From IMG/VR virus record IMGVR_UViG_3300037067_016575: 64,000 nucleotides of DNA; one strand, given 5' to 3'. Position 1 is the first letter of the stretch, and each line of letters begins with the position of its first letter. Of the stretch, positions 3,315 through 58,276 are shown in pieces. The position numbers were made by a program, and so were the translations under genes. The DNA comes from an uncultured virus (IMG/VR IMGVR_UViG_3300037067_016575). Taxonomy: Duplodnaviria > Heunggongvirae > Uroviricota > Caudoviricetes. The notes below the pieces were generated by a model. That model was not told the DNA's origin and did not search any database. It worked only from the letters and a program-made list of their open reading frames with translations.

Positions 3315-3905
3315 TTAAGAGTATAATTTGTTTGCCAGTTTGGTTGCGGTTTTGAGCAGATCCCGATATGCTTCGTGATCTTCATACGTTGCAAAGTAAC
3401 CTAACATGAAAAAAGTTTCTGCTACATATCGCCTTTGAAATGCAATATTTACACCCGGTTTCTCTTTTCCGTCCATATCAGATAAATTGTGTAACCGATC
3501 ACAGAGTTTCAATAAAACTGCTTCGCCACCGACACGATATAATCGTTTATAACTATCTAGATCTTTTTCGTGACGTGAGGGTAAACGGACATCCTTTGTC
3601 ATCGCAATGACAAGGGTTGTGATACGTTTGCGTTCGAGAGTGTGATTAGAGGGGTCATCGCCATAAATCTTGTTTAAGAACACTACCAGATCAAATTCAT
3701 CGACATCTTCGAGACAATCATGAGACAAAGCTGAAATTGCGACGACTTCATCAAATCCGTCGATATATTTTTGAGCTAATTCTGCAACTGCATAGGGGTG
3801 TGTGAAGTATGGGGTCACCCCATCTTTACGGAACTGACCCTCGTGTGCTTCCTTTACCAGTTTTATTGCCGTATCAACATTTTTTGAAATATTAATACCA
3901 GTCAT
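3315..3905 (-). CDS. HD-domain hydrolase, Mesh1/small alarmone hydrolase-like
   Basis: Motifs AHEGQFRK..PYFTHP..VA, SHDCLED and LKLCDRLHNL, typical of the RelA/SpoT hydrolase (HD_4) family. Confidence 0.85.
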   Translation of the reverse strand: MTGINISKNVDTAIKLVKEAHEGQFRKDGVTPYFTHPYAVAELAQKYIDGFDEVVAISALSHDCLEDVDEFDLVVFLNKIYGDDPSNHTLERKRITTLVIAMTKDVRLPSRHEKDLDSYKRLYRVGGEAVLLKLCDRLHNLSDMDGKEKPGVNIAFQRRYVAETFFMLGYFATYEDHEAYRDLLKTATKLANKLYS

Positions 3906-7634: not shown

Positions 7635-8015
7635 TTAAGGTTCGATTAAATCGATTTCTGCAAACCGGTTTTGTTTTTTAATTGGGTTTGTTCTATCTGT
7701 AGTTTCGTCTACCAGAATTAGTTTATCGTTTGGAGATACCAAGGGATCGGAATTTAACATTGTAATTAATTCTTTTGATTGTATTTGAACCCATTTCGGT
7801 TTTTTGTTGATATTTACAACGCAATTAAGTAGGGGGGTTATTCTTTTGTGATATCCATCTAACACTTCGGGAGAGATTTTGTTTCTTGATTGTGTTGAAC
7901 CTCTTGGAAATATTATAACACAAGGGGTTTTGCGTTTTCCGGTTGAACATGATGTGCAAATATACCATGAAAATAGTTTTGTTTTAACACCATCCCCCAT
8001 TCTTTCATCAACCAT
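7635..8015 (-). CDS. Cys/Zn-type hypothetical protein with RF tag (NRFAEIDLIEP*)
   Basis: WYICTSC..PC motif; resembles 8025-8366. Confidence 0.75.
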   Translation of the reverse strand: MVDERMGDGVKTKLFSWYICTSCSTGKRKTPCVIIFPRGSTQSRNKISPEVLDGYHKRITPLLNCVVNINKKPKWVQIQSKELITMLNSDPLVSPNDKLILVDETTDRTNPIKKQNRFAEIDLIEP

Positions 8016-14941: not shown

Positions 14942-15634
14942 TTACCTCCCTCGCCGCCTTTGTTTTTTGCTTAAATAATACTCTGCCGGGTTATCGACGT
15001 TGATTATAGCTAATTTCCCCCCGCAATCACACATAACTAGGTTGTTATGGAATTGTGGGACGACGGGTTTGTTATTGCCGATAACTAACTTTACCGTAGT
15101 ATGACCAACAAAGACCTTATTATACCCCGGAACCGGCTGTTTTTTTGCATAGAACACAAGATCGCGATCCCACATAATATCCTCAGGATCTTGTGATTCA
15201 ATTGGAACACCGGGTTTGAAACCCCCATGCACAAATATCCGGTTCTGATCGTCGATGTAATATAAAACCTGATTGTTGAAGAACTGTTTATGGGATTCGG
15301 GAATATTTGACACGTTGTAATCGTAAGATCTCATTGTGGCATTTCCCCCTTGATCCTGCCAAATATAGTTCACGTAAAATGCGTTATTAGGGTCTGAGTT
15401 CATCCAACCCATAAACCACGAACAGTGATTCCCACGTACATCAATACGATCCTTGATCTGTAATAACCTGTCAATACACTCTTTCGTGTGATCTCCGCCA
15501 TCGACGATATCCCCTAAAGTAATCAGACGATCTTTATCGTCGTTAAAATCCGCTTTCGCAAGGACTTCGTTTAGTGCGGATAATCTGCCGTGAATGTCAC
15601 CGATACAAAAACATCTCTTCATAATATCACTCAC
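14942..15634 (-). CDS. calcineurin-like metallophosphoesterase (phage Ser/Thr phosphatase-like)
   Basis: GDIHG, LGDIVDGG, RGNH, FVHGG, GHT motifs. Confidence 0.9.
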   Translation of the reverse strand: MSDIMKRCFCIGDIHGRLSALNEVLAKADFNDDKDRLITLGDIVDGGDHTKECIDRLLQIKDRIDVRGNHCSWFMGWMNSDPNNAFYVNYIWQDQGGNATMRSYDYNVSNIPESHKQFFNNQVLYYIDDQNRIFVHGGFKPGVPIESQDPEDIMWDRDLVFYAKKQPVPGYNKVFVGHTTVKLVIGNNKPVVPQFHNNLVMCDCGGKLAIINVDNPAEYYLSKKQRRRGR

Positions 15635-19874: not shown

Positions 19875-21260
19875 GTGAACTACCCCGCCGTAAACGGCGT
19901 GGCTTCCTGAGAGTGTACTGGAATGTCCAGACCTGTTTTTCTCAGATTATCGGTGAAGTGCCGATAGCCAGTCCACATGGCATTCGACGATAGGAACCGT
20001 ACCATGATATTGACCGCTGAATTACAGTCTCGATCTAAGTCGTTTCCACAATCGCATTTCATAACACGATCTTTGACGGTCATATCTGTATGAATTTTTC
20101 CACACTTACAGCACGTCTTGCTCGTGTTTCGTTCACTAATTTCTATTACTTTCTTACCTCTCATCGCTGCTTTATAGGTTAGAAATCCCGTGAACCTCGC
20201 AAGGTATCCGGTTCCTTGCGTTGACCTGTTCATCCCTCTCTTCGCTTTCTTCGACATCCCTTTCTGGGGTTTCGACTGCGGCATACTCTTCACATCAAGA
20301 TCACCGACTATTATTGTGTTAGCCTTTGTGTTCTCAACGATCATCTTCGAGGTCTTATGCTGGAAATCCTTAATCTGGTTACTCCGTTTTCTCTCGAATT
20401 TCCGTTTGATATTGTTCAAGTGTACCCATTGCCGACTGCTCGGCCGGCAATTCGTTTTCGTATGTTTTATACAACGATCTCTACGGCTCGTGATCTTGTC
20501 AATCGTTTTGTTCCAATACAAGTCCGGCCTCGCATTGTATACCTCAAAAAACTTCCCCGCTGTATTCACAGCCGTCTGTTTTGTGATGCCTAAATCAAAC
20601 GCCTGATACAACCCGTTGTCGTGATATTCCGGTGGCGTTATCTCGTCCACTATCGACAGATACCATTTTCCTTCATTGTAGTGGATTTCAACCTGTTTCA
20701 CATCCGTGAACTTCGCATACGGTGTTATCGAAAACGCGAGGTCTGCCCCTCCCTTGACCTTATGCGATAGGGTTACTTCTTCGTTGGTTACCTTGAACCC
20801 ACACTGGTTATATTTCATCGTGAAGAAATATTTCCTACCCCGAAATCCCGGAGGTCGTGCTTCCGGATCTACTTTTATCAGCGCGAAAAACGATTTGTAG
20901 TTCGCATCCAGCGTCTTCAACGACATCTGCAAGACTTTACTATTGACCTGCTTATATTCCGGATACTGATCTTTTATATTAGGTAATTTGTTCTGCTGAT
21001 CTACATACGATACCGATTTCTGTTCCCGTTCCCATCTCTCCTGCCGCTCAGCTAACGCAAAGTTATATATTAACCGACACCGGTTAGATAATACCCATAA
21101 GGTATCTTCCTGTTCCTCTGTCGGGTATATCCTGACCTTCCTCGTTAACTGCATTCTTATACTCAGTCCACCATTCCGTTTATATTCTTTCTGTTAGTTC
21201 CGGGAATATTATATCGCATTCATCCCCACCTTGAACAATGGGGAATTCTGCTCGCACATG
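19875..21260 (-). mobile_element. complete IS605/IS1341-type tnpB-only element (copy 2)
   Basis: TTTAA target at 21261-21265; left-end hairpin; right-end hairpin CGCCGTTTACGGCG followed by GGGTAGTTCAC; no tnpA inside. Confidence 0.9.
19880..21154 (-). CDS. tnpB: TnpB RNA-guided endonuclease
   Basis: N-terminal RIYPT HTH, RuvC-I AFDLG, Zn finger CCKCG..CDCG, RuvC-III DRDCNSAVNI. Confidence 0.95.
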   Translation of the reverse strand: MQLTRKVRIYPTEEQEDTLWVLSNRCRLIYNFALAERQERWEREQKSVSYVDQQNKLPNIKDQYPEYKQVNSKVLQMSLKTLDANYKSFFALIKVDPEARPPGFRGRKYFFTMKYNQCGFKVTNEEVTLSHKVKGGADLAFSITPYAKFTDVKQVEIHYNEGKWYLSIVDEITPPEYHDNGLYQAFDLGITKQTAVNTAGKFFEVYNARPDLYWNKTIDKITSRRDRCIKHTKTNCRPSSRQWVHLNNIKRKFERKRSNQIKDFQHKTSKMIVENTKANTIIVGDLDVKSMPQSKPQKGMSKKAKRGMNRSTQGTGYLARFTGFLTYKAAMRGKKVIEISERNTSKTCCKCGKIHTDMTVKDRVMKCDCGNDLDRDCNSAVNIMVRFLSSNAMWTGYRHFTDNLRKTGLDIPVHSQEATPFTAG

Positions 21261-24239: not shown

Positions 24240-25121
24240 TTACAGTCGGATTATCCGGTCTTTGTAAAGATTATATGCAGAACCGGGATTACGGCAGTTG
24301 TGTTTCTGGCATTGCTCTTTGACATGTCTTCCGATAACGGGCATGGCGATAACTTCGTCTTTAAACTTTTCTTCTCCGAGTTCAAAGAGGGCTTTTTCAA
24401 TTGCACCCGTAATTTCTGATTCCGGAAGTTCGGGTAACTGGTCTTTCGGATCTTTCGGTGAACGTATCTTCGGAAGGACTGTTTTTTCTTTGACCATATT
24501 AACGAATGTGCCGTTCTCGTTTGATATCCAGATTTTTCCGACAACCCCTTCGTATTTGTATTCTTTGCATCTGGCGATTAGTAAATCTCTCGTAGCCAAA
24601 ATCTCTTCAAGACTGGTGGCTGTTTGAACCATCATGAGTTCGGCACAAGGGATTTCATAATTAATACAATATTCCTGTAATACGCCATAAGTAACAAAGG
24701 GCGGGGTCGTGTTTTCATCTGATAGATAAAGGTCGAATGCCACAAACTGGTTTTCGTCCCTGATCTCAATTAATTTTGGGGATTTGCCTTTACGGATAAA
24801 CTCCCCGAAAAGAACGGCACGAACACCGGGGATCTGCTCGTGGAATCGTAAGAGTCTTTTAATATTTGCTGCACAGGGAAGTGCAAGGAATTTCTGCCGT
24901 TCGGATTCCTCGATCTTGTTCATTTCACGAGTCCGAACCTGCAACTCTCCTTCGTCGTCCAGATAACAACCTACGTTCTCTCCATCATACTTTCTTTGCC
25001 AGTATATCGGAGTACCGAATAATTTATCATTAATAGTTAAACCTTCGGTTTTATCCATATGATAATCGGCAATACATCCGAAACTGTGATATTTGATTTC
25101 ACTTATTGGAGTTTTTGTCAT
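24240..25121 (-). CDS. ATP-dependent RNA ligase-like nucleotidyltransferase
   Basis: Motif I KYDGEN, III LFGEF, IIIa FVAFDL, IV EGVVGK, V VKEK. Confidence 0.75.
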   Translation of the reverse strand: MTKTPISEIKYHSFGCIADYHMDKTEGLTINDKLFGTPIYWQRKYDGENVGCYLDDEGELQVRTREMNKIEESERQKFLALPCAANIKRLLRFHEQIPGVRAVLFGEFIRKGKSPKLIEIRDENQFVAFDLYLSDENTTPPFVTYGVLQEYCINYEIPCAELMMVQTATSLEEILATRDLLIARCKEYKYEGVVGKIWISNENGTFVNMVKEKTVLPKIRSPKDPKDQLPELPESEITGAIEKALFELGEEKFKDEVIAMPVIGRHVKEQCQKHNCRNPGSAYNLYKDRIIRL

Positions 25122-44935: not shown

Positions 44936-45532
44936 TTACCCTCCGAGATGTGCCTTTAGTTTCCTGATATATTCGATATCAGGAAACCCGGTGATGTAAA
45001 TTTCACCGTTGTGAATATTGATTTCAATTGGCGGGATTTCACCTGCATCTGGTGCCGGGATCTTCCCTGTCAATGAAATGACTTTCTGGTTCGATGACGC
45101 GATTAATGCTTTTCCATCAGTCGCGTTTTCCTGATCATACCGACCCGAGACCAACATATCTGCCGCTGCCAGTAACCGGTTCACACCTATGTCCTCTTTG
45201 TCTTTCAGTTCTGTATATGTAAACCCGGTGAATATCAGCACGGTCTTTCCATTCTGCTGTAGGATCTCAGCAAGATCGGCTAGTGCATCGGCCTGCAAGA
45301 ACGGTTCTCCCCCGGAAAACGTAACACCTTCGATGCTTTCAATCATCAGGATCTTGTTCGCCAGCTCGGTTACAGGAACCATGATATTGGGTTCAAAAGA
45401 CCAGTTTTGTGGGTTGAAACACCCCGAGCATTTCAGGTTGCATCCCTGCACCCAAACGACCGCTCTTTCCCCGTGACCGTTCGCTTTTGAACGATCCATG
45501 AAATACGCCATGTTTAGTTTTCGTTCGGACAT
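44936..45532 (-). CDS. radical SAM protein, NrdG/activase-like
   Basis: VWVQGCNLKCSGCFNP (CxxxCxxC), GVTFSGGEPF, FTGF, SSNQ. Confidence 0.85.
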   Translation of the reverse strand: MSERKLNMAYFMDRSKANGHGERAVVWVQGCNLKCSGCFNPQNWSFEPNIMVPVTELANKILMIESIEGVTFSGGEPFLQADALADLAEILQQNGKTVLIFTGFTYTELKDKEDIGVNRLLAAADMLVSGRYDQENATDGKALIASSNQKVISLTGKIPAPDAGEIPPIEINIHNGEIYITGFPDIEYIRKLKAHLGG

Positions 45533-46459: not shown

Positions 46460-46567
46460 TGCGCCGGAGGGGATTTGAACCCCCGACCAACGGATTTCTT
46501 CCGGGCTAATATGACCCATTGCTGCCCGTTAAAAGTCCGCCGCTCTACCTGACTGAGCCACCGGCGC
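46460..46567 (-). tRNA. tRNA-Lys(UUU) with canonical 37/38 intron
   Basis: GCGCCGG/CCGGCGC-A; GCGGA-CT TTT A-[intron CGGGC..GCCCG]-TCCGT; GGGG-TTCAAAT-CCCC. Confidence 0.9.
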
Positions 46568-46587
46568 ACAAAATATATTTCTCCGTG

Positions 46588-46798
46588 TGAGGTTAACAAT
46601 ATGCCGTGATAGACACCTGTATTGCAGGCTTATACGGATACCTGCAAGTGACTCTATGGTGAACGGGGTAGCCCATAGAACGCTCTACCCGAACATAAGC
46701 AATCCACACAATCCGGAAAATACGGCGATTTCGTATCTTGGTTGCCGCCACCTCATCAGTCTGACGCCCTGCGCGACATCACCACATTATTTAACCTC
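46588..46798 (-). ncRNA. candidate ~210-nt closed, pseudoknotted ncRNA
   Basis: Terminal helix GAGGTTAA/TTAACCTC; internal hairpins TCTATGG/CCATAGA and TTGCAGG/CCTGCAA. Confidence 0.5.
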
Positions 46799-46822
46799 TG
46801 TGCGGATGTTGGGGAAGAGGTA

Positions 46823-46895
46823 TACTCCCGGACAGATTCGAACTGTCGCCGCCAGATCCAAAATCTGGCATCATTGACCGCTAGACTACGGGAGT
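46823..46895 (-). tRNA. tRNA-Gln(UUG), archaeal A1-U72 type
   Basis: ACTCCCG/CGGGAGT-A; CCAGA-TT TTG GA-TCTGG; GACAG-TTCGAAT-CTGTC. Confidence 0.9.
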
Positions 46896-46898
46896 ATA

Positions 46899-46973
46899 TG
46901 CTCCATAACAGATTTGAACTGTTGTCTCATGTTGTCACCATGAGAGATAACAATGTATGTTATCCGATGGAGC
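46899..46973 (-). tRNA. atypical tRNA-like gene, loop GTGACAA (GAC, Val-like)
   Basis: GCTCCAT/ATGGAGC-A and perfect T-arm, but 7-bp D-stem and 6-7-bp anticodon stem. Confidence 0.5.
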
Positions 46974-46975
46974 GA

Positions 46976-47125
46976 TGTGGTGCGTTGGATTTGAACCAAC
47001 CATTTGCCGCATTATCTAGAATACTCGGCAAACTATCTTCTACTTCCCTTATATCAGTAACGGTTCCGGCACAGGTGCGACCCGTGGCGCTTGTCGTTTC
47101 ATATAAAGGTGTCAAGTAACACCAC
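46976..47125 (-). ncRNA. 150-nt tRNA-like RNA with enlarged arms
   Basis: GTGGTGT/GCACCAC-A; GTTGG-TTCAAAT-CCAAC; long internal hairpins. Confidence 0.55.
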
Positions 47126-47150
47126 GCAAGTTCACCAGATTTTTAGTTTG

Positions 47151-47428
47151 TCTCTCTGGCGGGAGATGCAGACCGTTTACATATCTGGAAATTACCACAT
47201 ACGCCCGAATCTTCTAAACCAGACATCGGTTCGGGATTGTTCCCCATACTGGACAGGGCAAAAGGCGATTCAACGAACAAATCCACCTTTACCAGACCTT
47301 CATCTTTATCTCTCTGGTGGGAGATGCATGCCTTTGTTTCGTTTCCCGGTCAAGCGCACTTATCCGGCTACGTTTCGAACCTTCCGTTGCCAGACATCGG
47401 TTCAAACAACCCCTCACTGGATAGGGTA
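47151..47428 (-). ncRNA. two tandem copies of a ~110-120-nt structured RNA motif
   Basis: Shared blocks CCCT.TCCAGT..GGG, GAACCGATGTCTGG and TGCATCTCCC.CCAGAGAGA. Confidence 0.55.
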
Positions 47429-47512
47429 TAGGAGAGGTGAGATTTGAACTCACGGACTTCTGCAAGACATGATCTTAAGTCATGCGTCGTTGGCCGACTT
47501 GACTACTCTCCT
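47429..47512 (-). tRNA. tRNA-Leu(UAA)
   Basis: AGGAGAG/CTCTCCT-A; CATGA-CT TAA GA-TCATG; long variable arm. Confidence 0.88.
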
Positions 47513-47983
47513 GCTTTATACGATTTGTTTTAAAAATTATTAAAAGTATATGCACCCGATAAGTGTTACTGCAATAATAAGGATTGCCATTAAGATTACG
47601 GCTAATCCCCCTGCACAAGATACCGGTTGTGGTGTATGAACGATTACCAGTGTTCTCCCGTTAAACGGCCACATGTTTTTCACCGATTGATTCTGGTTGA
47701 ATTGCCCTCGCAATTCATAAGGTGATACTGGAACCGTGCAAACGCTGTTGACGCTGCGTCTTCGAGACGGACGCGGAACCGTGTAACCCCTCCGAAAACT
47801 CCGATAATTACAATCTCATTTTCGAGGTGTGGATCGCACTGTGCCGCAATTTTCTTTATCCATTCCGGGGTTAAGTCTGTTTCAAACTGTAATGCCCGGT
47901 AAATAATTTCGCTCATCGTATCATTTGGATTTTTTCGTTCGAAATACTGCTTAATTTCCATGTTTTTCCTCCGTTTGTTTGAA

Positions 47984-54661: not shown

Positions 54662-55462
54662 TCAGAACATATCCGCAACATCGATCCGGTCTGCGATCTT
54701 GGAACTGGTTTTGACAGGTTTACCCTTTTCGGGTCTGCCGTCCGGATGGAGTTCTGGAACCTCTGACTCATCAGCAGCTTTTGCGCCGCCATCTAAGTAA
54801 TCGATTTCGTTCTCCATTACAACGTCAACCGTCGAGAACCGGTCTTTTTCTTCGTCCAGAATTTCCATGATCTCTTTTTGGAGCGGAAGGATCTGGTCTG
54901 CCATGATCATATTCCGCATCTCTTCGATCCGGTGGTCGATCTGAACGTCTTCCGTTACATTGACCGTTTTAAGCCGATCCAGCATCTTAAGAAGTGCTCC
55001 CCGTGTGCGGGAAGTCATCTTATCCCCGTTTTTCTCAATGGTCTCGGAGATCTTCTTGAGTACCTTCTCGTGGATCTGGGTCTGGATCTGGGAGAGCATC
55101 TCTTCCATGAGGTTTTCAGTCTGCAAACCCGACATGGAGAGTGGGATGAAATGGATATCTGCCTTTAACGTCGGGTCAATCGCTTGCATCGAGAGATGTG
55201 CGTCTTGTACGACCTTTTCAAGCTGACCTTTCCCGATATCGTTAGTGATCCTCATCGTGTAAAACTTGGCGCATGTTCCCACGGCCATGTTTACCTGTTG
55301 CCTTACCACCCCGATCTGATTGCGCTGCTCTTTCTGGAAATGATAATACAATTTTTTGGAGTTCTCAGACTCGTTGATCTCGGTCTTATCCGTGAAATTC
55401 GGACTTGACATCTTGAGTTCAACGACGTAGAGTTGTCCTTTTGCTGTTGTTACTGCTGCCAT
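54662..55462 (-). CDS. helical protein of the AAA operon, RF tag (DRFSTVDVV)
   Basis: GGTGAGGT SD; co-oriented with the DUF2997-like gene. Confidence 0.75.
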   Translation of the reverse strand: MAAVTTAKGQLYVVELKMSSPNFTDKTEINESENSKKLYYHFQKEQRNQIGVVRQQVNMAVGTCAKFYTMRITNDIGKGQLEKVVQDAHLSMQAIDPTLKADIHFIPLSMSGLQTENLMEEMLSQIQTQIHEKVLKKISETIEKNGDKMTSRTRGALLKMLDRLKTVNVTEDVQIDHRIEEMRNMIMADQILPLQKEIMEILDEEKDRFSTVDVVMENEIDYLDGGAKAADESEVPELHPDGRPEKGKPVKTSSKIADRIDVADMF

Positions 55463-55523
55463 AAGTTTACCTCACCGATACAAGATTGTTTGGCAAAGAA
55501 AAGAGTTTTGAATTTCGCCGACC

Positions 55524-55742
55524 TTACCGGTGGACGAAAACTTCTGATCCCTTCTCTTCGAGGTAGGGCGTGTGGGCTTCCGCCATGAGATCCTGTTCCT
55601 TGACATTGGACTTGATCCCGTTGGATTCGAGATGCTTTCGGAGCTGCGCAAGGACTTCCGTGCATTTTGCACTCTTGAATCCTTCTGCGTGAACTTCGAG
55701 TTCCCCGCCATTCGAGATCCGGTATGTAATATTTTCTGACAT
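55524..55742 (-). CDS. DUF2997-like small protein
   Basis: ITYRISNGGELEVHAEGFKSAKC.E....L pattern; position after the DUF1257-like gene. Confidence 0.7.
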   Translation of the reverse strand: MSENITYRISNGGELEVHAEGFKSAKCTEVLAQLRKHLESNGIKSNVKEQDLMAEAHTPYLEEKGSEVFVHR

Positions 55743-55744
55743 AG

Positions 55745-56143
55745 TTAGAACCTCGTTGCGGTAATCAGGATCTTACCGTCCTTGTCCTTTGTTACCTGCT
55801 GCGTGAATCCCTGCTTCGTGTTGAAGTCCTTGATGACCGCCGCCTGATACTGATCCTGTACCATGTTGGTCACCTTGGCGAATTCCTTGTTGCACTGCCA
55901 CGGGTCGCCCTGCATCTCGTAGCTCTTCTTGTCCTCGGACTTGATAAACCTGAGATTACCCTGTTTCTGGTAACCATCAATCGGGGGATAGTTGACCTTG
56001 ATCATGGTCTTGTCGGGATTCATGGAGTAAGTGAACTTGACTTTCTCCGTTGAAAGCTCTTTCTGCATTGCTTTGAGTGCGTCTTCCAGCATCTTTGCGC
56101 TGGTTAACTCGCACTTTGTTTTGAGTGTCGTTATATGTGACAT
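55745..56143 (-). CDS. DUF1257 (Ycf35)-like protein
   Basis: MSHITTLKT...L..AL..M..GD.W......Q.Y.......GF; start trimmed. Confidence 0.7.
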   Translation of the reverse strand: MSHITTLKTKCELTSAKMLEDALKAMQKELSTEKVKFTYSMNPDKTMIKVNYPPIDGYQKQGNLRFIKSEDKKSYEMQGDPWQCNKEFAKVTNMVQDQYQAAVIKDFNTKQGFTQQVTKDKDGKILITATRF

Positions 56144-56229
56144 TCTTGTGATACCTCGTAAATATTGGGTGTTCGGACTTCGATACTGGATACCAACTTC
56201 CGGAACGAACCGGGAAAGTGGTTTGGATG

Positions 56230-56523
56230 TCACCCGCAATAATGCACAGAAACCTTACTAGGATTGATTCCGTTGGCTTTTAAATGTGCGATCAGTGCTT
56301 GGTCGTTCCCGGAACAAATAACCTCGCCATTCGAGATTATTACGTCCGTACGGGGTGACGGGTCAACCGGAACCACACTCAAATCCTCATGCCCTAGTGC
56401 CGTAAGGTTTGCTCCCGGCATAAAGGCAAGGGAAAAAAGAGGGTTGTGGTTAACCATATCCTCCCGGTGCCGCTCAGTCAATATCGCCGAGATCGGCTTT
56501 GCTGATTTCATCTTTAACGTCAT
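56230..56523 (-). CDS. hypothetical protein overlapping the AAA gene end
   Basis: ORF track. Confidence 0.55.
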   Translation of the reverse strand: MTLKMKSAKPISAILTERHREDMVNHNPLFSLAFMPGANLTALGHEDLSVVPVDPSPRTDVIISNGEVICSGNDQALIAHLKANGINPSKVSVHYCG

Positions 56524-58276
56524 TTTCCGTTACCACGTCGATTGTGCTGGCCCGGGTTCCGATCTTCTCTTTTGATGATACGATCTTCTTTCGGGCTTCT
56601 TCATCGTCCGACGCATTGATCGCGTTCTCTTCCGCCCAACGGATCATTGCATCCAGAATGTCCTTCTTCTGAGTGGTGATCGGTGTTACATCCTTCATCG
56701 CCTTGACAATGTGATCCGTCGTCAGGGGTTTTGCCCCTTCGTCGAATGCGTTACCAAGTGCGTCCTGAATGGTGTTACGGATTTCACGACCTACAAACCC
56801 TTCGCTGGCATCGGCCAGCTTTTCAAGGTCGAAATCTTCTGGGTTACGCTTGACGGCCTTGATGTGGATACGGAAGATCTCGATCCGTTCCTTCCGAGTC
56901 GGAGCGTTCACGAAAAACATCTTTGGGAACCGGCTCATCAGTTCTGCCTTGAGGCTCGCGTGATCGTTGCACGTTGCTACGACAAAAACGCCTTTCGACT
57001 CTTCCATCTCCGTCAGGAACGACCCGAACAACCGGGCGGATTCCTCGTGCATTTCACCGTTCTGGCCGGCACCAAGTGCCTTTTCGATCTCATCAATCCA
57101 GAGGATACAGGGAGCCAGTGCCTTGGCGAGTTTCCACGTGTTCCTCATGTTGTTAGACGACTCGCCGTAATATTTACTGACGAGCTGGGACATGTCCAAC
57201 CGTAGGAGCGGAAGCCGGAGTTCGTTGCCGCACGCCTTCGCGACCAGTGATTTACCAGAGCCGGGAACACCGACCATGATAATACCACGGGGCGGGTCAA
57301 TACCGTATTCCCGAGCCTCCTTTCCGAAGTGCTTTGAGGCAGATCGGATGTACGCTTTCAGGGTGTTAAGTCCCCCAATAGACTCCGACGTTTCCTCCGG
57401 TTCCCAGTACTCAAGCTGACCGGACTTCTTGATGATCTGCTTTTTCTCGCTGATGATCGTCTTGATGTTCAGATCGCCGTTGATCAGACACTTGGCGAAC
57501 ACGTTCTCGCATTCTTCGAGCGTGAGACCCAGCGCCGCCGCTACTATCGCGTCCTTGTTGGCGTTTACCTGATCATTGAGAGTCTTCTTCTTCGCCAGTA
57601 GTTTGGTCAGCATCGCTTTCTGCGATTTTGCATTCTCGGGATCACTTGTTTCTTTGATGTTATCCTTCATCGTCTGTTCCTGATCGGACAGCCCTTTGAT
57701 CGCAGCGCATAAGATCGCCTCGATCTCGGACTTGTCCGGCAGTGGCACGTCGATGATGCTGATCACTTTCTGCAAATCGACTGGAATAGATACGACCGGT
57801 GAGACAAGGATGATGATTTTCCTCTGTCCTTTCAGAACCGGGACGATATCACGGAGTTTACGCTGTACCAACGGAACATCCTTCATGAATCCGTGGGTAT
57901 CCAGCATAATGAAAATGTTTCCAGCGGTTCGTACTTGTTTGTCGTCTGCTCCCTTGTACTGTTCTGTGAGCTTCTTGGAACGGACTGCCTCCATTGCGTC
58001 GAACAACGTAAGTATCGTAGGGGTGTCGTCGTTTTCCGTTGAGTTTTGATCGGTATTTGTCTGAACCCATGTCGTGTTTGTTACATCGATCATCCGATGA
58101 TCGACATTCCTGAAACCTGATGCACCGGAATAGATATACACGGTGCGGTGTTCATCTTTGGCGATATCCGCAATGATTTCTATGACACGAGATTCCTCAT
58201 GGGTTTCAATGGCAATAACCGGGTATCGAGCCCGGATGTGGGTTGATAATTCCTTTTTTAGTTCTGCAATTCCCAT
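56474..58276 (-). CDS. Ycf46-type AAA+ ATPase
   Basis: IRARYPVI.IETHEE.R N-terminus, degenerate first AAA domain, Walker A GVPGSGKS, Walker B LWIDEIEK, sensor ATCN, WA..NA..AS; tail TRASTIDVV. Confidence 0.9.
   Translation of the reverse strand: MGIAELKKELSTHIRARYPVIAIETHEESRVIEIIADIAKDEHRTVYIYSGASGFRNVDHRMIDVTNTTWVQTNTDQNSTENDDTPTILTLFDAMEAVRSKKLTEQYKGADDKQVRTAGNIFIMLDTHGFMKDVPLVQRKLRDIVPVLKGQRKIIILVSPVVSIPVDLQKVISIIDVPLPDKSEIEAILCAAIKGLSDQEQTMKDNIKETSDPENAKSQKAMLTKLLAKKKTLNDQVNANKDAIVAAALGLTLEECENVFAKCLINGDLNIKTIISEKKQIIKKSGQLEYWEPEETSESIGGLNTLKAYIRSASKHFGKEAREYGIDPPRGIIMVGVPGSGKSLVAKACGNELRLPLLRLDMSQLVSKYYGESSNNMRNTWKLAKALAPCILWIDEIEKALGAGQNGEMHEESARLFGSFLTEMEESKGVFVVATCNDHASLKAELMSRFPKMFFVNAPTRKERIEIFRIHIKAVKRNPEDFDLEKLADASEGFVGREIRNTIQDALGNAFDEGAKPLTTDHIVKAMKDVTPITTQKKDILDAMIRWAEENAINASDDEEARKKIVSSKEKIGTRASTIDVVTENDVKDEISKADLGDID

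Follow-up and report, generated by a model that had tools for sequence, protein, structure and literature searches.

Among described molecules, the RNA elements considered here come closest to the small stable RNAs encoded in viral tRNA clusters. Release of a small RNA by tRNase Z behind a tRNA or tRNA-like element is known from the gammaherpesvirus TMERs and from the tRNA-snoRNA dicistrons of plants. In phage T4, rnaC and rnaD (species 1 and 2) are annotated small stable RNAs of the tRNA cluster, described in the account consulted as having unknown functions (PMC9697503). Theta ribozymes (Kienbeck et al. 2024, PMC10879173) lie 3' of viral tRNAs without CCA, are pseudoknotted and occur in genomes with an RNA ligase gene; according to the portion of that study used here, their cleavage site G1 is located within 5 nt of the tRNA 3' end, a cytosine opens J4/2, DRB0094-type RNA ligase is enriched in theta phages, and the predicted hosts are Bacteroidota and Bacillota. 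GOLLD and ROOL, phage non-coding RNAs from the neighbourhood of tRNA islands, contain many pseudoknots and kissing loops and are, as presented in the part of the source considered, of unknown function, GOLLD often exceeding 800 nt (bioRxiv 10.1101/2024.12.08.627333). Archaeal tailed viruses with tRNA clusters and RNA ligases are also on record, and no RNA of the present kind is named in the accessible part of that record (PMC8651126). In a literature search covering mostly open-access texts without supplements, we found neither a description of the present motif nor a small stable tRNA-cluster RNA from a virus of methanogens.

The window, that is, the whole stretch of 64,000 nt analysed (IMG/VR record IMGVR_UViG_3300037067_016575), has a G+C content of 40.7%, and most of the long reading frames listed are on its minus strand. 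It is probably a large mobile element of archaea, and probably a virus; the viral nature and a methanogen host are what we infer, because no capsid or terminase gene was recognized among the 25 and 30 window proteins scanned. A GINS subunit is encoded, and four of its 11 relatives bear an organism name, in all cases Methanoregula (34–35% identity). The sole phage record matching the RNA ligase was a virus assigned to Methanofastidiosa (26.5% identity), and the tRNA-Lys gene displays an archaeal-type intron (see below). The motif stretch was present in six of the eight DNA runs listed, from four studies, with three runs marked as possible sources. Contigs of four DNA runs showed no variant letters over the motif (part of copy A was without cover in run X6), and a metagenome locus, L139, was 99.98% identical to the element over 5177 nt, with an identical copy B and a one-base deletion in the P3 region of copy A. 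The motif stretch is thus not an assembly artefact; as the letters over it all agree, the run contigs yield no covariation.

The elements of the tRNA cluster are, in 5' to 3' order along the minus strand:

47528–47544, minus strand: AT-rich TATA-like stretch, a candidate archaeal promoter of the cluster seen by eye, about 16–32 nt upstream of tRNA-Leu
47429–47512, minus strand: tRNA-Leu(UAA), no encoded CCA (ARAGORN; Rfam RF00005, 55.1 bits)
47291–47428, minus strand: motif copy A (138 nt), immediately next to the discriminator of tRNA-Leu (alignment and covariance model)
47258–47292, minus strand: single-copy spacer hairpin between the copies (-8.5 kcal/mol, z -2.0)
47134–47260, minus strand: copy B, 127 nt (alignment and fold; the same in L139)
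46976–47125, minus strand: tRNA-like element X1, starting 8 nt past copy B (minimum-energy fold, z -3.8)
46899–46973, minus strand: tRNA-like element X2 (cloverleaf fold, z -6.4)
46823–46895, minus strand: tRNA-Gln(UUG) (ARAGORN, Rfam)
46460–46567, minus strand: tRNA-Lys(UUU), interrupted after position 37 by a 34-nt intron, with a bulge-helix-bulge (Rfam, 60.6 bits; ARAGORN with introns allowed and relaxed score; bulge-helix-bulge by eye)

The order is therefore tRNA-Leu, copy A, spacer hairpin, copy B, X1, X2, tRNA-Gln, a gap of 250 nt and tRNA-Lys, and the packing is tight, with gaps between elements of 0, 8, 2, and 3 nt. Neither X1 nor X2 was called as a tRNA by ARAGORN or Rfam. X1 folds with a 7-bp acceptor stem, a T arm with a UUCAAAU loop and two long arms replacing the D and anticodon arms, one loop containing CUA, and X2 has long D and anticodon stems of 7 bp, a GUGACAA loop and the triplet GAC. 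The spacer hairpin is about the size of a tRNA acceptor-plus-T minihelix and might be read as one. Encoded CCA was absent in all six tRNA or tRNA-like genes, and a UAC trailer was common to tRNA-Leu, tRNA-Gln and tRNA-Lys, with or without the motif behind. The start of copy A consequently resembles an ordinary tRNA trailer.

In the gap between tRNA-Gln and tRNA-Lys (46570–46821, minus strand) we observed a candidate internal pseudoknot (46690–46666 with 46681–46651) and a long stem that closes the structure, the fold having a z of only -1.15, and a CUGAUGA word at 46759 with the remaining parts of a hammerhead absent; the gap gave no Rfam match. Upstream of tRNA-Leu, a 93-aa ORF (47680–47961, minus strand), located between tRNA-Ile/Met and tRNA-Leu, belonged to no protein family found. 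Elsewhere in the window, 26 otherwise unrelated small proteins (904–54459, minus strand; example frame ends at 7635, 28520, 40279, 43178, and 45800) share the C-terminal peptide (N)RF-x-x-(I/L/V)-(D/E), most commonly NRFAEIDLV, which resembles a tag for docking or targeting. Many genes between 37241 and 63887 are preceded by an intergenic repeat of roughly 25 nt (CCGGAAC..GAACCGG and then an A run), which is present in at least 11 copies and is a candidate promoter or operator. The window also holds an AAA ATPase gene (phrog_8638) with adjacent small genes, one of which matches phrog_20456 (54662–58276, minus strand), an NrdG-like radical SAM gene (44936–45532, minus strand) and an IS200/IS605 tnpB gene (19880–21154), with a second stretch, 91% identical, at 1–300.

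The two motif copies occurred at the places proposed by the sequence-only reading, on the minus strand, which is also that of the tRNAs. That reading had set the pair directly 3' of tRNA-Leu; this applies to copy A, which starts at 47428, the next base after discriminator A47429, but not to copy B, which begins 168 nt later. Three conserved blocks were confirmed, a 19-nt block appearing twice, as against none in 100 shuffles, and a 14-nt block being repeated exactly. The extents first given (47151–47260 and 47308–47428) were too short, with a fourth block, UCUGGU, lying outside them at 47296–47291 in copy A and at 47139–47134 in copy B; the short conserved words CGUA, AAACG, and RGAA had been overlooked as well. 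The global alignment of A with B scored 107, compared with 28 ± 8 (maximum 53) in 500 shuffles, and a covariance model built from B alone detected A with 41.1 bits (E 2.3e-10). There is no third copy in the window, since the next match of that model reached just 14.1 bits. In seven hand-set anchor segments, 78 of the 96 anchored columns were identical, a figure to be read with the bias in favour of structure that a hand choice of anchors entails. The linkers between anchors differed in length and sequence and could not be aligned. Blocks of 14 and 24 nt were near-invariant, and the divergence between copies was confined to the linkers and to changes that preserve pairing. Rfam 15 (4227 families) gave no match to either copy at the gathering score. 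With E values up to 10, only sX4 touched a copy, at 17.9 bits (cut-off 70) and centred on tRNA-Leu. Judged from the letters, the copies are a real, selectively conserved, and uncatalogued RNA module in an archaeal-type tRNA cluster.

Taken singly, the copies folded with energies no better than shuffles (z -0.22 and -0.87), and the same was true of the whole 303-nt interval (z -0.96). The two-copy consensus fold was better than chance, with -19.1 vs. -11.5 ± 3.0 in 300 column shuffles (P = 0.013). Strong shared helices, reaching -7 kcal/mol, numbered eight vs. 2.5 expected (P = 0.01); helix counts by length alone were non-significant (P = 0.09–0.23), and the structure conservation index was 0.52. 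The minus strand folded better than the plus strand (-19.1 vs. -16.9), and each of the four single-sided changes in P2a, P2b, and S2 gained or lost a G-U pair as read on the minus strand. The description of the motif as an undescribed structured RNA is therefore upheld by the absence of Rfam matches over the copies and by this shared fold. The predicted stems are as follows:

47410–47426, minus strand: copy A P1, weakly supported 5' hairpin (CCCU/GGGG, loop with CCAGU); four invariant pairs, consensus p about 0.4
47374–47406, minus strand: copy A P2 arm, with P2a (47406–47401/47379–47374), P2b (47394–47391/47386–47383), a GCAA cap and the conserved internal loop CCGAUG
47340–47372, minus strand: copy A P3, variable arm on a conserved CGU/ACG base; p about 0.56
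47291–47328, minus strand: copy A candidate H-type pseudoknot of blocks 3 and 4, with S1 (47325–47321/47312–47308) and S2 (47318–47313/47296–47291)
47258–47242, minus strand: copy B P1 (consensus fold)
47235–47230/47209–47204, minus strand: copy B P2a (consensus fold)
47223–47220/47216–47213, minus strand: copy B P2b (consensus fold)
47203–47174, minus strand: copy B P3 (consensus fold)
47166–47163/47154–47151, minus strand: copy B knot stem S1 (consensus fold)
47160–47155/47139–47134, minus strand: copy B knot stem S2 (consensus fold)

In this model P2a, P2b, and S2 are the well-supported parts, and P3 and P1 are weaker. The stems originally quoted did pair, the eight homologous pairs comprising two compensatory, one compatible, four invariant, and one broken. 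P2a (6 bp) showed two compensatory changes and one compatible change (p 0.80–0.99); a helix of at least 6 bp with two compensatory changes appeared in 2.7% of 300 shuffles. P2b (UCUG/YRGA, 4 bp) showed two compatible changes (p 0.87–0.95). The GGGG of P1 has an alternative partner in the UCCC of block 3 (p about 0.3), and the stricter versions of P1 (6 bp) and S1 (5 bp) contained one broken pair each. Most of the proposed pairs are invariant and hence without covariation. Outside P2a, P2b, and S2 the fold is tentative because several conserved helices (CCAG/CUGG, GAUGU/GCAUC, GGGG/UCCC, and URUC/GAYA) are mutually exclusive, and the whole fold rests on two paralogous sequences, no homologue having been found outside the element. 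Two further arrangements were discarded. A kissing pair between CCAG of the P1 loop and CUGG has four invariant pairs and yet competes with P2b. In a closed fold with URUC/GAYA, two variable sites form one compensatory pair; three such helices were found vs. 3.1 expected (P = 0.59), and the nested core was about 3 kcal/mol weaker.

For the pseudoknot, the sequence-only reading had paired a loop, UCUGG, with CCAGA of the 3' hairpin loop. The two are indeed complementary (five invariant pairs), but as a pseudoknot partner this UCUGG is probably wrong, and the UCUGGU of block 4 is predicted to be the better partner: pairing of the CCAGA loop with block 4 amounted to -8.0 and -11.0 kcal/mol in the two copies, as compared to -6.6 and -8.1 kcal/mol with the partner first proposed. 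Rather than a loop, UCUGG is mostly paired within P2b in the two-copy consensus. The pairing first proposed had a probability of 0.00 in both single-copy ensembles, a partial test only, given that the algorithm cannot form pseudoknots. An equally good partner for the CCAGA loop within 15 sites had a chance of 0.005–0.01, and block 4 was kept while the preceding linker changed. S2 (RCCAGA/UCUGGU) reached a consensus p of 0.93–0.98. With the stem UCUC/GAGA, the geometry is that of an H-type pseudoknot, having a loop 1 of 2 nt, no loop 2 and a loop 3 of 11 nt with six or eight adenines. The folding program, which cannot form both stems at once, favoured S1 for copy A (p 0.63) and S2 for copy B (p 0.98); the joint presence of S1 and S2 is a prediction from geometry. 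As a separate observation, the letters of the S2 helix in both copies nearly repeat those of the tRNA-Gln anticodon stem (46851–46869, GCCAGA with UCUGG), and in both copies UCUGG is followed 9–10 nt later by UUCG, as in the 3' half of tRNA-Gln. This likeness may reflect chance, descent or pairing in trans.

Relatives of the motif were sought in several collections. In viral contigs, the block 3 pattern gave 0 loci, the block 2 pattern at least 120, block 2 plus loop 3 gave 25, and the 5' domain pattern nine, with no relative among them; nine loci retrieved by a back-translated protein tag contained no related element, and three protein scans gave no relative. Metagenome contigs provided 51 loci, one of which was the same element (L139). 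Among the candidates set aside, L125 shared a longer word in repeat-rich DNA where the other blocks were absent, L145 was by eye the opposite strand of a coding gene, and the one locus in species genomes was a chance match in a Planctomycetaceae genome. By blastn the motif had no match in phages and 17 short matches in plasmids, with coverage of 15% or less. The covariance-model search suggested at the outset was carried out on the window and on 197 of 217 loci (L101–L120 were screened by regular expression only, not by model R1), but it detected no homologue, the best match outside the element attaining 17.1 bits. Searching of this sort depends on exact words and would overlook homologues that have diverged, and because relatives of the element are rare, the blank reflects sampling and exact-word searching more than family size. 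No homologue was found for the gene following the tRNA cluster. The 93-aa ORF had a single relative, P0117 (59% identity), on a contig of about 1 kb, and this contig is the most promising place to look for a second member of the RNA family.

Compared with the known systems, the copies resemble T4 rnaC and rnaD in being a pair of non-coding RNAs of 120–140 nt inside a viral tRNA cluster; they lie in the cluster and are co-oriented with it, the element itself being a probable virus. T4 differs in that it infects bacteria, and the rnaC fold ends in a T-arm-like hairpin, closer to X1 and X2 than to copies A and B. No homology to rnaC or rnaD was detected by blastn against a phage collection or with model R1 on the T4 region. 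With GOLLD and ROOL the copies share the setting beside tRNA genes, and the repeated CCAG/CUGG could likewise pair between the copies; both of those RNAs are much larger than the copies, which matched no Rfam family. Unlike the products of TMERs and tRNA-snoRNA dicistrons, the copies show no box C/D signature (neither RUGAUGA nor CUGA was present in either copy) and no match to snoRNA or miRNA families in Rfam, and the host would be archaeal. As regards H/ACA guides, block 3 is followed by an AYA triplet, but inspection by eye revealed no K-loop. Likenesses to hairpin ribozyme loop B, the ZTP and SAM-I riboswitches, the T-box, the SRP Alu domain, a type I-E CRISPR repeat and group II domain V were dropped, as they had no match in both copies or in Rfam, and the copies do not resemble the tnpB right end present in the window.

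Our preferred reading, which we hold at about an even level of belief, treats the copies as a small structured RNA module without catalytic activity. An archaeal virus-like element would transcribe it with the tRNA cluster, host tRNA-processing enzymes would free it, a knot would protect it, and it would bind protein or RNA. In archaea, tRNase Z cleaves behind the discriminator and RNase P in front of the acceptor stem. Transcribed together with the cluster, the copies would be cut by host tRNase Z behind tRNA-Leu and by RNase P in front of X1, which would release a 303-nt RNA (47428–47126) made up of copy A, the spacer hairpin and copy B; the spacer hairpin might perhaps be cut too. This release would need no ribozyme, since maturation of tRNA-Leu and X1 by tRNase Z and RNase P would suffice, and the predicted flanking sites are the reason for which the copies are read as a stable product of tRNA punctuation. 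In each copy the 5' hairpin would be followed by an arm whose two stems flank a conserved internal loop, then by a variable arm and finally by an H-type pseudoknot that would shield the 3' end. The invariant blocks may act as a decoy or scaffold by offering a surface to which a protein of the host or virus, or a second RNA, binds.

Several alternatives were weighed against this non-catalytic module. It is somewhat unlikely that the copies act only in cis, as a folded spacer that insulates the tRNAs, steers processing or blocks exonucleases and is then degraded. Their place between the processing sites of a packed cluster and the candidate pseudoknot terminating each copy would suit such a spacer, and tandem nuclease-blocking knots occur in RNA viruses. 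An insulator, however, requires pairing and not near-invariant blocks of 14 and 24 nt, and the other junctions of the cluster manage with gaps of 2–3 nt. It is unlikely that the duplication has no function as RNA, or that the copies are a site acting at the DNA level or a small coding region. That no homologues were found outside the element and that single-copy folds remained at chance level are consistent with it; against it stand the restriction of divergence to linkers and pairing-preserving changes, the G-U pairs that favour one strand, a block spacing that is no constant multiple of three, the one-base deletion in L139, and the lack of Pfam matches over the cut-off in three of three ORFs overlapping the motif.

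The position behind a tRNA had also suggested a theta or HDV-like ribozyme, and membership of that family is now very improbable, being largely refuted on sequence in spite of the location at a tRNA 3' end. HDV ribozymes have the helix order P1, P2, P3, P4, with an L3 of 6–8 nt and a P1.1. Within each copy, the helices P2a, GAUGU/GCAUC, P2b, and P3 follow this same order. Yet there is no G1: UACCC follows the tRNA-Leu discriminator, both copies start with U, and an HDV-like skeleton would begin 22 nt from the tRNA end, vs. the theta limit of 5 nt. The nested double pseudoknot is likewise missing, with a loop GCAA or GUU (3–4 nt) in place of the L3 and no P1.1; no GG follows the P1-like stem; and the junctions leading up to GCAUC match neither in length nor in sequence and share no positionally equivalent C that could serve as the J4/2 cytosine. 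A hand-written strict HDV descriptor, run with no positive control, gave 0 matches on both strands of 47280–47432 and 47112–47275, whereas a loose skeleton matched 561 and 2425 times and was non-discriminating. The short loop, the missing P1.1 and shared cytosine, and a skeleton that matches hundreds of times lead us to conclude that the copies are not members of the HDV family. They differ from theta ribozymes further in their length of 127–138 nt, the extra 5' and 3' domains, the tandem arrangement and the archaeal context. It is quite unlikely, too, that the copies found a new class of self-cleaving ribozymes, with an HDV-like helix order and a different active site. Such ribozymes would cut the tRNA-cluster transcript of an archaeal virus where each copy starts or close by (for copy A, at the 3' end of tRNA-Leu) and would work together with the virus's own RNA ligase and phosphatase. 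Such a class would agree with the abutment of copy A on the tRNA end, as in theta ribozymes (PMC10879173), with a helix immediately preceding the start of both copies, with conservation that extends to sequence beyond pairing, with the four shared helices in HDV order and with the RNA ligase (PF09414), metallophosphoesterase and HD-domain protein encoded in the window. On the other hand, no ribozyme model of Rfam matched at E values up to 10, the HDV descriptors were either empty or non-discriminating, no tRNA directly precedes copy B, and five of the six tRNA or tRNA-like genes are without a copy. The RNA ligase had no NCBIfam match and so cannot be assigned to the DRB0094 type, and the portion of PMC8651126 considered here reports RNA ligases in tRNA-rich archaeal viruses and mentions no ribozyme. 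Short hammerhead, hairpin and twister motifs were absent from the copies; two CGAAA words in copy A had no CUGANGA partner nearby. The RNA ligase, the calcineurin-like phosphoesterase and the HD-domain protein (24240–25121, 14942–15634, and 3315–3905, respectively) possibly form a set that repairs RNAs of the tRNA cluster.

Small stable RNAs from viral tRNA clusters, T4 RNA C and D among them, are still without a known function. The motif, known from one element only, is short, exists in two natural variants and is easily transcribed, so that cleavage, probing and pull-down tests would be cheap. If the copies self-cleave, they would represent a new ribozyme class; if they do not, they would be an uncatalogued RNA family of an archaeal virus, in a cluster that also holds two non-canonical tRNA-like RNAs.
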